Position numbers and translations under genes: made by a program. Shown one piece after another: positions 2,774 through 56,603 of a stretch of DNA of 64,000 nt. Origin of the DNA: Escherichia phage vB_EcoM_ESCO10; sequence record OM386655.1. One strand, 5' to 3'. Within the stretch, counting starts at the first letter, position 1; every line of letters begins with the position of its first letter. The notes below the pieces were generated by a model. The model made no database searches. It worked only from the letters and a program-made list of their open reading frames with translations, and had not been told where the DNA came from.

Positions 2774-3802
2774 CTAAATCTTGGAATATTTTGAAAGTCG
2801 CATTTTTGCCATTAAACCTTGTGCGATATTCTCTTTCATATAAGAAAGGATATCGTTTATATTGGCTTTATCTTTCATAACCATATCATTTATATCTTTA
2901 GAAGGCCATGGAGCCTTGTCCCAGAACAGAACCCTTTCACCGGCATCAACTAGTCGTTGCATACGCTTAATTGTGTCAGGATGACGGGGTTCATTGTCCA
3001 TTACCCATGCTCTTGTTTCTTTACATGGAACTATTGATAAGTCTAACGACCCACCAGTAATTGCTATTGCATTAGGTACAAATAATGAATCGATAGGGCC
3101 TTCCATTACCCACACCAACTGACGTTCGTCAACCGTGTCCATTCCATATATTTTTGTAGCTTGGTCGTGAGCTTTAATTGTAATATATTTTTGTGGGGCA
3201 TCTTTACGTAAAGCTCGACCCTGAAAGCTTTCAATTTGTTTATCTTTATTAAAAATAGGAATAACCAAACGAGGCTCAGGTATTTCTTTAGAATAGGTCC
3301 CGGGATTCACTGAGTTAACCAGCGCCGGCCACTCTTTCGTAAACCATAGTCTATTCCATTTGTTTTCGGGAATGCATCGCAGAGTTACATATTTGATAAT
3401 AGGATGGTCTTTAGGCATTCTATCTAATCGTTCACAGAAATTAAGCTTTTCGATGACAGGCATCTTAGCTTTAATTTTTTCAGATATCTCCACCTTAGGT
3501 GTAGCTTGTCTCCCGAACGATTGCTCTTTATGTTTCTCAAGAATATATTCTCGATATAAATCTGGCTCATATTCGTATAGATACTTCTTAATTCCTGCTG
3601 AATAGTCACAATTAAAACAATGCAACATAATAGAACCATCGTTAGCCGGGTAAGCCCAAAATCGAGCTTTGTTCTCATCTTTTTGTGAGTCACCACATAC
3701 ACGACAACGACAGTTTAATTTAAAATCACTACCGGTTACTTGTCTGAATTTAGGTTGGTAATTCAAGGCACGTACAGCAAATTCTTTATCGACATATGAC
3801 AT
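2774..3802 (-). CDS. 61: DNA primase gp61
   Basis: 342 aa; zinc-binding CRCRVCGD...CFNC N-terminus and length match T4 gp61. Confidence 0.9.
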   Translation of the reverse strand: MSYVDKEFAVRALNYQPKFRQVTGSDFKLNCRCRVCGDSQKDENKARFWAYPANDGSIMLHCFNCDYSAGIKKYLYEYEPDLYREYILEKHKEQSFGRQATPKVEISEKIKAKMPVIEKLNFCERLDRMPKDHPIIKYVTLRCIPENKWNRLWFTKEWPALVNSVNPGTYSKEIPEPRLVIPIFNKDKQIESFQGRALRKDAPQKYITIKAHDQATKIYGMDTVDERQLVWVMEGPIDSLFVPNAIAITGGSLDLSIVPCKETRAWVMDNEPRHPDTIKRMQRLVDAGERVLFWDKAPWPSKDINDMVMKDKANINDILSYMKENIAQGLMAKMRLSKYSKI

Positions 3803-9998: not shown

Positions 9999-10693
9999 TT
10001 CAGGAAACCTCGGACGTAGTCAAAATCACGTTCAAATACGTGTGCACTAACCATGGTGTGAGAATACGTACCCAAACCAACACCACACTGCTCTGCAATA
10101 AAGGCCATCAGTTTGCCCTGCAGATAGAAATCAAGCTGCATAACAACAGCACAGTTCTGTGAACGCATATGGGTATGTGCATACAAACGACCATCACGAA
10201 TGTAATACGTTACCGAATCAGTACAAGGATATTCTAGGGATTCGTCAGAATCAAGGAGAGCTTGGTCTTGTTCTTGGAGAATCTGGAACACAACTCTTCG
10301 CGAGTTAGGCTTTTCTTTAAGCTCTTTAAGTAGGGCTGGGAGCTGGGCCACAATTCGAGGTCCATAGAAAGTGTTGAAGTTTGCAGGCAATACGTCACTT
10401 TTCGGCTTATCAATGAACTTAGCAACATTAGGGTATTCCTTAAATGCTTCGGCGGCATCAGTACCACCGGAAATCATAAACTTCCAGAAAGATTCGGCAT
10501 AATCATAGTTGATACGATTAATACGAGGGTCAGTGAATTTATAGGTGCTTGCATCCAGTACTTCTACCGAAGCAGAACCAACTTCATAACAACGTCCGAT
10601 ACGAGAATCAACTGCAAACTGCGGAGCTTCCAGGATTTCTTCGTTCATTTGTTTAAATGCATTTTCAAAACTAACAGCGGTAATGTGTTTCAT
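9995..10693 (-). CDS. 42: dCMP hydroxymethylase gp42
   Basis: 232 aa; thymidylate-synthase-like; matches T4 gp42 from memory. Confidence 0.85.
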   Translation of the reverse strand: MKHITAVSFENAFKQMNEEILEAPQFAVDSRIGRCYEVGSASVEVLDASTYKFTDPRINRINYDYAESFWKFMISGGTDAAEAFKEYPNVAKFIDKPKSDVLPANFNTFYGPRIVAQLPALLKELKEKPNSRRVVFQILQEQDQALLDSDESLEYPCTDSVTYYIRDGRLYAHTHMRSQNCAVVMQLDFYLQGKLMAFIAEQCGVGLGTYSHTMVSAHVFERDFDYVRGFLK

Positions 10694-11226
10694 TTATTCA
10701 CCTTATTTTCAATATATTCATTCAGACGTTTTAATTCTACCATATCAACATTAAGCAAATTATTATGGCCATCATGATTTAAGATTTTAAACACGTTTTC
10801 AAAACATGTTTCGTATTGTCTGACAGTTAGGTTGAACTCATCTTTAGTTAATTTAATAAGGTCGTCTTCAAAGTCTTCATCCAACGGATTACGAGTTAAA
10901 ATAACCTCAATGATATTGAACTCTTCTTTGAATTCTTTCCAGTCTTTAAGCTCTTCTAATGGGTCCATTTCACCACGAAGGAATCCTGAGTAAACAATAT
11001 TACTAGGATACCCACGGTCTAAGATATAGACAAAATTTGGGTCTAAAAACTTATACAGAGTTTCAACTAGAGCCTTATCATTATCAGTTCCTAATGAAAT
11101 ACATTTACCGTTAATCTTCTTAGGAAAATCAATAAGCTTAAAATTAGTATTATTAAGTAATTTGTTAATTAAAGTAGACTTCCCGGAATTATCCGGGCCG
11201 TCGATAACAATGATTTTTGGTTTCAC
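10690..11226 (-). CDS. P-loop nucleotide/nucleoside kinase-like protein (dNK/TMK-like)
   Basis: 178 aa; Walker A IVIDGPDNSGKST at the N-terminus and DRGY motif; ATGA overlap with neighbours. Confidence 0.7.
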   Translation of the reverse strand: MKPKIIVIDGPDNSGKSTLINKLLNNTNFKLIDFPKKINGKCISLGTDNDKALVETLYKFLDPNFVYILDRGYPSNIVYSGFLRGEMDPLEELKDWKEFKEEFNIIEVILTRNPLDEDFEDDLIKLTKDEFNLTVRQYETCFENVFKILNHDGHNNLLNVDMVELKRLNEYIENKVNK

Positions 11227-55162: not shown

Positions 55163-55166
55163 CCAA

Positions 55167-55194
55167 AAAGGCCCAACCTTTCGGAAGGGCCTTT
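55167..55194 (-). terminator. hairpin terminator (8-bp stem AAAGGCCC/GGGCCUUU with inner GNRA-capped helix)
   Basis: inverted repeat; could terminate in either orientation. Confidence 0.45.
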
Positions 55195-55334
55195 AACCTA
55201 GGGTAACCTTGTCGGGGTTCCACCTGCTAGGCAAGTGTTCGGGGCGCCGTTTCAGCTGTGATATAAGGGGGCATTAACAAAACATAAAGATTTATTAATG
55301 CCAGTCCTTAAACAGGGAACTTCAGTCCGACGAC

Positions 55335-55889
55335 TTACCGGTAGCGACCCGGTTTCTTGTTTGGTATTTCAAATTTTGTAGATTTAATATCTAATTTTTT
55401 AACTATAGAACTTATGTCATGAAAGAAAAACCATTCCCCATTTATATGATCTCTACTATAAATTGAGTGCATATATTTTTCAAGTTCTACCGCATCTTGT
55501 GAATATCTAAATGATACTATTTTAAAACTTCTAAACGGTGAAAATGTGTTGGCCGTTATAGCTCTAATATCAGGTTCTATACTTCTTCCTATTTTATAGT
55601 AATTAGGATTTGTAGTGTCTACCATTATGTATACAAAGGCCTGACGATAACTTTTTTCTATATCGAATTCATCTTTAAATTTCAATAGATTTAGAGCAGC
55701 CGTTCTACAAAATATTCCCCATATCGACGAGCGTTTAGCTTCGGTCATCGAAAAGAATTTTTTCTTATCTATGATTTTAAGAAAAGCCACCTTTTCAATT
55801 AGTTCTTGTGTTATTTCAAAATTACCATGGTGTATTAATCCAGCTTTTATAGCCAAATTAATTTGGTCCCAGTCTACATCACTTCTCAT
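55335..55889 (-). mobile_element. GIY-YIG/T5orf172-like putative homing endonuclease
   Basis: 184 aa; C-terminal VYIMVDTTNPNYYKIGRS...GEWFFF motif; visibly AT-rich; immediately adjacent to the tRNA genes (segB-like context). Confidence 0.55.
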
Positions 55890-55908
55890 AATATTATTCT
55901 CATTAATT

Positions 55909-55985
55909 TGGTCGGGGTGAAAGGATTCTAACCTTTAACCTGCGGTTTAGAGGACCGCTACTCTATACAATTGAGTTACACCCCG
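55909..55985 (-). tRNA. tRNA-Arg (anticodon UCU)
   Basis: hand-folded cloverleaf: acceptor CGGGGTG/CACCCCG, D-stem ACTC/GAGT, anticodon stem GCGGT/ACCGC with loop CCUCUAA, T-stem AAAGG/CCTTT, encoded CCA. Confidence 0.75.
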
Positions 55986-55989
55986 TGTT

Positions 55990-56064
55990 TGGTGGCCCTT
56001 GCTGGTTTCGATCCAGCTACCTATCAGTTATGAGCTGACAGCTCTCCCATTGAGCTAAAGGGCC
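55990..56064 (-). tRNA. tRNA with CAU anticodon (Met, or Ile2 if lysidine-modified)
   Basis: hand-folded cloverleaf: acceptor GGCCCTT/AAGGGCC, anticodon loop CUCAUAA, T-stem GCTGG/CCAGC, encoded CCA; 4 nt from tRNA-Arg. Confidence 0.75.
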
Positions 56065-56071
56065 TTAATTA

Positions 56072-56491
56072 TTAACTTGACCATCCCCAACCTTCGGAAG
56101 GACCATCGTAGTGTACACAAATATCAGGTGAAATATTAAAATTGGCTTCGTTCGAAGAAAAAACACCCAACTTTTTACCAAACTCACTGAAGCAGAATTG
56201 TTCGCCGCCTGGAGCCCAAACATCTTCAAATAAAACAGTGAATAGCCAGCCGGCAATTTCATCTGCATCAAATTCTGTTACACCTGAGCACATTTCATAT
56301 AACTCGTCATCACAGACTGTAGCCACGATATGGGCCGAATGTTCTTCAGATTTTAACCAGATGCGAATTAAATTACCATCAAAACAATTGTAGTTAATTT
56401 CGGATGGCCGGCAGTTATAAAATACTTCTGTAGCGATTTCTGGATTTTCCCAGGTTTCGTCGTTAAAATTGATAAGAATAGGAGTAATCAT
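56072..56491 (-). CDS. hypothetical acidic protein (139 aa)
   Basis: ORF with RBS GAGGAAAA. Confidence 0.5.
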   Translation of the reverse strand: MITPILINFNDETWENPEIATEVFYNCRPSEINYNCFDGNLIRIWLKSEEHSAHIVATVCDDELYEMCSGVTEFDADEIAGWLFTVLFEDVWAPGGEQFCFSEFGKKLGVFSSNEANFNISPDICVHYDGPSEGWGWSS

Positions 56492-56603
56492 ATTTTCCTC
56501 ATTAGTTGATTATTCTATTATGAAAGGCTCTTTGAGGGAAGAACCTTTGGTAATAGAGGGTACTTATTAATAATAACACACTGCTCTTAAAGCATATTAC
56601 TTG

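Follow-up and report, generated by a model that had tools for sequence, protein, structure and literature searches.

A putative free-standing T5orf172-type homing endonuclease gene at the tRNA-Arg region of a T4-like Escherichia phage

What is the AT-rich open reading frame (ORF) that lies against the tRNA genes of Escherichia phage vB_EcoM_ESCO10, and how does it relate to the site that it occupies? The stretch of DNA analysed here, hereafter the window, comprises 64,000 nucleotides of record OM386655.1, from a T4-like phage (Straboviridae). The ORF lies at 55335–55889 on the minus strand, begins with ATG and encodes 184 amino acids. An initial annotation, made from the sequence alone, described it as a recently acquired mobile or selfish gene with a C-terminal GIY-YIG-like block, placed in the context in which T4 carries the homing endonuclease gene segB. 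The analysis below supports much of this description and revises its account of the domain order, of the age of the gene and of its relationship to SegB.

An intact member of the T5orf172 family

The ORF is indeed more AT-rich than its surroundings. The GC content is 0.310 for the ORF and 0.292 for the core of the insert, while the whole window averages 0.387 (sd 0.023 over 555-bp intervals). In a GC profile, the lowest 555-bp interval of the 64 kb was found at 55353, inside the ORF, and 0.16% of intervals were as low. Two other AT-rich minus-strand ORFs were observed in the window. The first, at 1861–2517 (218 aa), has the HNH-like motif EEHHIVPK...N...H, matches NUMOD3 at E 2e-6, and is probably a further, unrelated free-standing homing endonuclease gene. 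The second, at 10690–11226 (178 aa), coincides with the patch of the window that ranks second from the bottom in GC (minimum 0.301) and contains the P-loop GPDNSGKST; it yielded weak AAA_28/MMR_HSR1 matches only, and could be another acquired gene.

Family membership was judged by the curated gathering scores of the Pfam profiles PF10544 (T5orf172) and PF13455 (MUG113) of the GIY-YIG clan. Both profiles scored above their cutoffs over residues 85–155, MUG113 with an E value of 1.6e-7 and 32.3 bits (cutoff 22.3) and T5orf172 with 6.4e-6 and 27.0 bits (cutoff 20), bearing out the C-terminal GIY-YIG-like block that had been proposed. The two motifs quoted for that block, VYIMVDTTNPNYYKIGRS and GEWFFF, are both present in the 184-aa translation. 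Homologs in KpV477, RN29 and IrmaTschudi also pass the T5orf172/MUG113 profile, and PHROG 5032 ("unknown function") matches the ORF over its full length at 2.8e-59. Every database copy is annotated as "hypothetical protein", and the VR7 record mentions similarity to BF23 ORF172c. With profile match, fold and core residues all in agreement, the ORF belongs to the T5orf172/MUG113 family.

Among six copies of the ORF, dN/dS was about 0.1 for every pair and in both domains, and none of the six contains an internal stop, indicating that the product is a working protein and not a relic. The ORF is a genuine, intact gene under strong purifying selection. The low GC content and weak Shine-Dalgarno sequence would also suit a chance ORF or a decaying, functionless pseudogene, but this explanation, whose probability is close to nil, is refuted by the full-length PHROG match, the confident two-domain fold described below and the dN/dS of the six intact copies. 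Values of dS between the E. coli-phage sub-lineages are 0.9–1.1, so the family is old in T4-like phages.

AlphaFold2, run on a 12-sequence alignment, returned a model with pLDDT 89.5 and pTM 0.84, in which N-terminal helices (residue 1 to ~75) are followed by a C-terminal alpha/beta domain of GIY-YIG type. The N-terminal four-helix domain (residues 1–78; 55656–55889, minus strand; helices 7–15, 28–36, 42–47 and 50–74) is presumed to be the DNA-recognition module, a predicted DNA-binding role with which the domain order of the family agrees; the bundle could not be matched with confidence to any DNA-binding fold on record. It contains no Zn-finger cysteines, and its CRTAALNLLKFKD helix is kept in alignments as far as the T5-like homologs. 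The C-terminal T5orf172/MUG113 nuclease domain of GIY-YIG fold (residues 84–170; 55380–55640, minus strand) was delimited by Pfam, AlphaFold2 and alignments. Invariant or nearly invariant, T5-like relatives included, are Y87 (GFVYI), K99-I-G101 (YKIG), R109, E137 and G151-E152-W153 (GEWF), and Y98 is also conserved in this domain. Motif order and the work on Odn (ICP1 gp88) suggest that R109 and E152 (the latter corresponding to Odn E180 and I-TevI E75) are catalytic-type residues: in Odn, the Glu aligned with the catalytic Glu of I-TevI is essential for cleavage of double-stranded DNA, and the catalytic Arg is conserved (PMC8263062).

This domain order had been regarded as unusual, a view that has to be given up. 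A DNA-binding region at the N-terminus and a nuclease at the C-terminus is the usual T5orf172 layout (PMC10448857), and the full-length two-domain fold was found to match T5-like phage proteins (TM ~0.7). The less typical trait is the small helical N-terminal domain, which stands in place of the CapR, DUF723 or DUF4397 Zn-finger modules present in 87% of T5orf172 homing endonuclease genes (HEGs; PMC10448857). Could the protein instead be a domesticated T5orf172 relative, acting as a sequence-specific DNA-binding regulator like satellite CapR and devoid of catalysis? The InterPro domain name 'T5 Orf172 DNA-binding', the existence of domesticated relatives (PMC10448857) and the strong purifying selection would accord with such a role. 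However, the GIY-YIG-type core, including the equivalents of the catalytic Arg and Glu, is kept in narrow and wide alignments alike, and the patchy distribution and insertion signature described below are unlike those of a gene integrated in phage physiology, so that a regulator appears very improbable.

An inserted segment within the tRNA/stable-RNA unit

The initial annotation placed the ORF against a tRNA pair, and these genes were identified by both ARAGORN and Rfam as tRNA-Arg(UCU) at 55909–55985 and tRNA-Met(CAU) at 55990–56064, on the same strand as the ORF. The CCA end of tRNA-Arg and the ATG are separated by a 19-nt leader, AATTAATGAGAATAATATT (55890–55908, minus strand), with a weak SD-like GAG. 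This leader is conserved in all phages that carry the ORF, and other genes found as cargo at this position have leaders resembling it. On the other side, comparison with RB27 revealed a homolog of the T4-type stable RNA gene rnaD (species II RNA) at 55240–55360 on the minus strand, 93.75% identical to RB27 2287–2414, where rnaD is annotated at 2289–2409. Its first 26 nt (55360–55335) also supply the ORF with its closing codons and stop. The Rfam scan matched just the two tRNAs, Rfam having no rnaD/rnaC family. Further downstream, a terminator-like hairpin with a U-run (55163–55194, minus strand; −19.2 kcal/mol, z = −2.3) was missed by a terminator consensus scan owing to an internal mismatch and was folded separately. 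The presence of rnaD and of this hairpin downstream indicates that the ORF lies within the tRNA/stable-RNA transcription unit; in a scan for sigma-70 promoters, sites were no commoner than expected by chance.

Two side observations concern the stable RNA genes. About 140 nt, making up most of rnaC (species I RNA), are missing from the window (at 55195–55240), JS98 and VR5 and present in RB27 (2145–2283) and UFV-AREG1; the window retains only rnaD and the terminator region. In addition, the ORF or its homolog ends inside the 5' end of a downstream RNA gene in KpV477 (1443–1452), RN29 (2505–2543), Aeromonas phage 44RR2.8t (1372–1398) and the window (55335–55360). As a speculation, 5' processing of that RNA would leave the mRNA without its stop codon and might thereby act as an inherent brake on expression.

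The junctions can be read against phages that lack the ORF. In ORF-less JS98, VR5 and RB27, rnaD starts 1 nt past the CCA of tRNA-Arg. The last 31 nt of the ORF (55365–55335, ACCAAACAAGAAACCGGGTCGCTACCGGTAA) are 100% identical to the empty junction in 60 ORF-less records, indicating that codons 177–184 and the stop are rnaD sequence. The conserved family core is thus confined to codons 1–176 (55889–55362, minus strand), and the remaining codons with their TAA (55361–55335) belong to the flank. The insert is bounded by a direct repeat, ACCAAA, also on the minus strand; the left copy (55907–55912) consists of the ACCA at the 3' end of tRNA-Arg plus AA, and the right copy (55360–55365) is the point at which homology to ORF-less VR5 and JS98 starts. 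The two copies start 547 nt apart, and compared with an empty junction of JS98/VR5 type the window is longer by 547 nt. A simple 547-nt insertion relative to JS98 was ruled out as the whole story, because the neighbouring tRNA alleles differ as well.

The tRNA neighbourhood of the window was found to be mosaic. The 20-kb backbone is closest to that of Dhakavirus VR5 (95.5% identity, 91% coverage). Homology to this near-isogenic relative from the rnaD side (94.7%) reaches 55365 and is then absent for 1,146 bp (55366–56511, minus strand), a patch that is ~95% identical to Gaprivervirus VR7 and contains a 139-aa ORF (phrog_25544), the tRNA-Met (100% identical to that of VR7/VR26), the tRNA-Arg allele referred to below as tRNA-Arg*, and the T5orf172 ORF. 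The window thus has a foreign patch within a Dhakavirus-like backbone, and the ORF/rnaD junction forms the right edge of that patch. The copy of the ORF is itself mosaic: over the 425 nt that take in tRNA-Met, tRNA-Arg* and the 5' part of the ORF (56070–55645), the window is one base off VR7, whereas 55644–55376, the nuclease half, differs at 27 of 269 positions (about 10%), a pattern that points to an intragenic recombination breakpoint. Most of these nuclease-half differences also distinguish the window from the VR26-like sequence and UFV-AREG1, so its nuclease-domain allele is otherwise unsampled in the collection compared. The claim of recent acquisition is therefore sustained in one sense only: the patch is foreign to its VR5-like backbone, but the family is old and strongly constrained.

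Other irregularities were observed in related tRNA clusters. VR5 contains 137 nt of degenerate tRNA-like remnants (GGTTCGATTCC..., GGTTCGAGTCC...) between tRNA-Met and tRNA-Arg (3604–3740), and in UFV-AREG1 tRNA-Asn is separated from tRNA-Arg* by 126 nt (3154–3279) that RB27 lacks. Both look like scars of earlier rearrangement of the tRNA cluster.

Occupied and empty sites and the linked tRNA allele

A full-length copy of the ORF was found in 25 phage records, compared with 882 T4-like records that match the surrounding 4 kb; this presence/absence polymorphism is what the proposal of an inserted, mobile gene had predicted. Occupied and empty pairs occur in Dhaka/Gaprivervirus, Tequatrovirus, Mosigvirus and Jiaodavirus. 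Across five genera, the ORF follows tRNA-Arg directly on its 3' side, behind the conserved ~20-nt leader; the phages concerned are VR7 and VR26 in Gaprivervirus, UFV-AREG1, teqskov and others in Tequatrovirus, AV110 in Mosigvirus, KpV477 in Jiaodavirus and PS2 in Muldoonvirus. Its downstream neighbour varies, being rnaD, the RB69-ORF150c leader, tRNA-Thr or, in a VR26-like contig, unrelated sequence. Insertion is into the 1–10 nt spacer past the tRNA-Arg CCA, and tRNA-Arg, rnaD, tRNA-Thr and ORF150c are left intact. In 12 family members, conservation of the protein extends as far as Pro176, in the motif ...F-(E/D)-(I/L)-P, beyond which the tail depends on context (NKKPGRYR*, L*, V* or SLYKDF*); each copy thus takes its stop codon from its own flank. 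In KpV477, for example, the 5' acceptor arm of tRNA-Thr contains both the Pro codon and the TAG stop of the ORF. In the VR26-like IMG/VR contig, from 3028 onward, the conserved core ends in ...GAAATACCA and the frame continues into unrelated sequence with no nearby stop, possibly giving a fusion or extended protein.

A search for relatives in IMG/VR returned one locus, the VR26-like one, and a search of 5.8 billion proteins returned 11 clusters, which indicates that the close family is small. With an E cutoff of 1e-3, a deep profile search found 2,815 proteins, and with one of 1e-30 only 4. The ORF is part of a small and distinct clade in a large superfamily.

The spacer between tRNA-Arg and rnaD was also observed to be a hotspot for other cargo. 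VR20 has an unrelated 79-aa gene there (VR20_146, phrog_33509; 1744–1983), and Mosigviruses hold RB69-ORF150c between tRNA-Arg and rnaD (JS09 1158–1502, AV110 1143–1487); each of these genes is preceded by a similar CCA-AxTTxxTGAGxA leader.

Divergence around the ORF was traced in occupied and empty relatives. Between Mosigvirus AV110 (occupied) and JS09 (empty), identity runs from 100% in tRNA-Met to 79.7% in tRNA-Arg on one side of the ORF, and from 92.2% in ORF150c to 97% in the next 300 nt on the other. Between Jiaodavirus KpV477, where the ORF sits inside a 10-nt spacer of Kpn6N with ATTTA repeated, and Kpn6N itself, it is 98.9% in tRNA-Leu and 96.1% in tRNA-Arg upstream, and 81.8% in tRNA-Thr and 97.6% in tRNA-Gln downstream. 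In both pairs, divergence is highest at a flanking tRNA and falls to a background of ~97–100% identity. Between genera, the cassette is better preserved than what surrounds it, with 90.7% identity between the window and UFV-AREG1 against 72–84% in the flanks. Divergence centred on the ORF fits co-conversion of the flanks, and is also compatible with ordinary recombinational import.

In the E. coli phages, the flanking allele tRNA-Arg* is perfectly linked to the ORF: the 15 records that have an allele at least 97% identical to it coincide exactly with the 15 ORF-containing records of that sub-lineage. No other allele exceeds 86% identity. tRNA-Arg* folds into a well-formed cloverleaf and differs from resident alleles mostly by compensatory changes in the stems. 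U33 is nearly universal in tRNA anticodon loops. The anticodon loop of tRNA-Arg*, CCUCUAA, has C at position 33, and U33C is its one uncompensated change; an unusual T-loop (GGTTAGAATCC) and a D-loop lacking GG were also observed. Copies of the ORF in Klebsiella phages sit beside an ordinary U33 tRNA-Arg that closely matches the empty-site allele. An identical C33 anticodon arm was also found in tRNA-Arg(TCT) genes of large tRNA arrays on unrelated IMG/VR phage contigs; among IMG/VR stretches, it was counted 9 times and the U33 version 118 times, and no T5orf172 homolog was detected near these C33 genes in the surrounding DNA that was retrieved. A role of U33C as a general marker of immunity to the HEG was ruled out, since U33 accompanies the Klebsiella-phage copies and C33 arms were found in unrelated phage tRNA arrays devoid of the ORF. 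The C33 arm may be connected with evasion of tRNA-targeting defences. A comparison of occupied and empty tRNA-Arg alleles for the cleavage target yielded no single difference common to all genera.

The linkage raises the question of whether the protein might act on RNA, cleaving the tRNA-Arg(UCU) of the host or a rival, or its precursor, with the U33C tRNA-Arg* serving as a resistant replacement in the manner of a toxin and antidote. The perfect linkage in E. coli phages, the position of the sole uncompensated change in the anticodon loop and the physical tie of the family to tRNA genes in several phage families would all suit such a pair. To our knowledge, however, the GIY-YIG nucleases characterised to date act on DNA, Odn and SegB among them, the Klebsiella-phage copies lie beside an ordinary U33 tRNA-Arg, and unrelated phages have C33 tRNA-Arg(UCU) genes whose neighbourhood lacks such an ORF. 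This explanation is considered extremely remote.

Relationship to known nucleases and the proposed mechanism

T5orf172 genes are assumed to be homing endonucleases, although homing is so far unverified for the family (Barth et al., 2023; PMC10448857). The T5orf172 proteins of T5-like phages and ICP1 share with the ORF the same above-threshold Pfam domains and a layout in which a recognition part, presumed in the case of the ORF, precedes a C-terminal nuclease, and the T5-like genes are, as here, variably present among tRNA genes. The closest T5-like relatives, RN29 ORF078 and an unannotated homolog in Gostya9 (~40% identity), are also joined to tRNA-Arg(UCU); they lie 5' of the tRNA and overlap it, whereas the ORF of the window lies 3'. 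Other T5-like paralogs overlap tRNA-Lys, and ORF121c of Aeromonas phage 44RR2.8t is located between tRNA-Tyr and tRNA-Lys. The host of the ORF is a member of the Tevenvirinae, whereas T4 itself contains no T5orf172 genes according to Barth et al. (2023; PMC10448857). The locus is a fresh example of an already known type of selfish "homing" gene, not a novel type of system.

The likeness to SegB suggested by the initial annotation concerns the site and not descent. SegB, like the ORF, is encoded by a free-standing nuclease gene within a T-even-type tRNA cluster; it recognises the T-arm motif in tRNA genes and makes its cut immediately past the CCAR at their 3' ends (PMC2330249), which is the position of the ORF insertion and the reason why the analogy fits. 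Homing of SegB co-converts flanking tRNA genes (PMC2330249, PMC13096335). However, in SegB the N-terminal part is PF01541 and the C-terminal part binds DNA, an order opposite to that of the ORF and a different Pfam family, and no kinship was found beyond the GIY-YIG superfamily. Membership of the Seg family was ruled out by the lack of detectable BLASTP similarity to the SegB-type protein of T4_ev151 (E 2.9), by the absence of a PF01541 hit in the ORF, where the T4_ev151 protein matches at residues 3–71, and by the position of the nuclease domain at residues 84–170 of 184. As a side observation, the SegB-type GIY-YIG gene of T4_ev151 (2281–2946) stops 4 nt short of the 5' end of tRNA-Arg. Different phages thus have nuclease genes of two unrelated lineages beside tRNA-Arg, the SegB type 5' and the T5orf172 type 3'. 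I-TevI and other intron-encoded GIY-YIG endonucleases also have the opposite domain order, and the ORF is not intron-encoded. A comparison of the low-diversity family profile with a single I-TevI catalytic-domain sequence gave no match, a result that carries little information.

Odn, the sole biochemically characterised T5orf172 nuclease (PMC8263062), resembles the ORF in that its T5orf172 domain is C-terminal and conserves the catalytic Arg and Glu; its specificity comes from an N-terminal module, as is presumed for the ORF. It differs in being an anti-satellite weapon and not a homing element, with an N-terminus derived from RepA_N (PMC8263062) to which that of the ORF is unrelated. The main rival explanation is that the spacer is a hotspot which is broken by other enzymes, for instance of SegB type, and takes up assorted genes; the ORF would then be a passenger or 'moron' nuclease with another role, such as exclusion of competing phages or satellites in the manner of Odn. 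Non-nuclease cargo with a similar leader occupies the same slot (VR20_146 and ORF150c), SegB cuts exactly at the tRNA 3' CCAR, Odn is proof that a T5orf172 nuclease may serve as a weapon instead of a HEG, and the dN/dS of ~0.1 hints that the phage benefits from the gene. However, the ORF always lies beside tRNA-Arg in five T4-like genera, and its closest T5-like relatives by tRNA-Arg(UCU), a constancy that points to site specificity of the element itself; the perfect linkage to a recoded flanking allele is, moreover, a classic signature of intronless homing. A passenger is accordingly judged a real but somewhat unlikely possibility.

The reading preferred here is that the ORF is a putative free-standing homing endonuclease gene of T5orf172 type at the tRNA-Arg region, SegB-like in its behaviour, for which we infer cleavage, target and biased inheritance, with a probability of roughly 0.62. 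In this mechanism, the ORF would occupy the few-nt spacer past the CCA of tRNA-Arg(UCU) and be transcribed within the tRNA/rnaD unit. In a mixed infection, the protein would bind the DNA of an ORF-less phage through its N-terminal helical domain and cut in or beside the tRNA-Arg gene, whereupon T4-type recombinational repair would copy the ORF and flanking donor sequence into the cut genome. In E. coli phages, the co-converted flank would be the recoded, cloverleaf-forming tRNA-Arg allele, replacing the resident one, and in Klebsiella phages tRNA-Thr would be the donor flank dragged along. The installed tRNA-Arg* would presumably be a poor substrate for the nuclease.

An extension of the homing mechanism, which we hold to be doubtful, is that the nuclease gene and tRNA-Arg* form a single co-mobile cassette with divided roles: the nuclease would target the DNA of the resident tRNA-Arg gene, and tRNA-Arg*, through its compensatory stem recoding and U33C, would be immune to the nuclease and functionally altered, for example insensitive to a host defence that targets tRNAs. 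If true, the spread of a selfish element would carry an anti-defence tRNA variant into T-even phage populations, and this would account for the strong purifying selection on the ORF and for its persistence.

Study of T5orf172 proteins has so far centred on Vibrio phage ICP1 and T5-like phages. The present locus provides a ready-made test system for T5orf172 homing in culturable E. coli T-even-type phages, with natural occupied and empty alleles (VR7/VR26 versus VR5/VR20, UFV-AREG1/teqskov versus RB27/T4, AV110 versus JS09 and KpV477 versus Kpn6N), junctions known to the single nucleotide and a flanking tRNA as candidate immunity allele. The ORF adds a second nuclease lineage, unrelated to SegB, that has settled at the 3' ends of tRNA genes, which bears on the mosaicism of phage tRNA clusters. 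SegB drives the amplification of anti-defence tRNAs (PMC13096335); given that work, the locus, in which a recoded tRNA allele hitch-hikes with a nuclease gene, bears on the evolution of phage tRNA repertoires.
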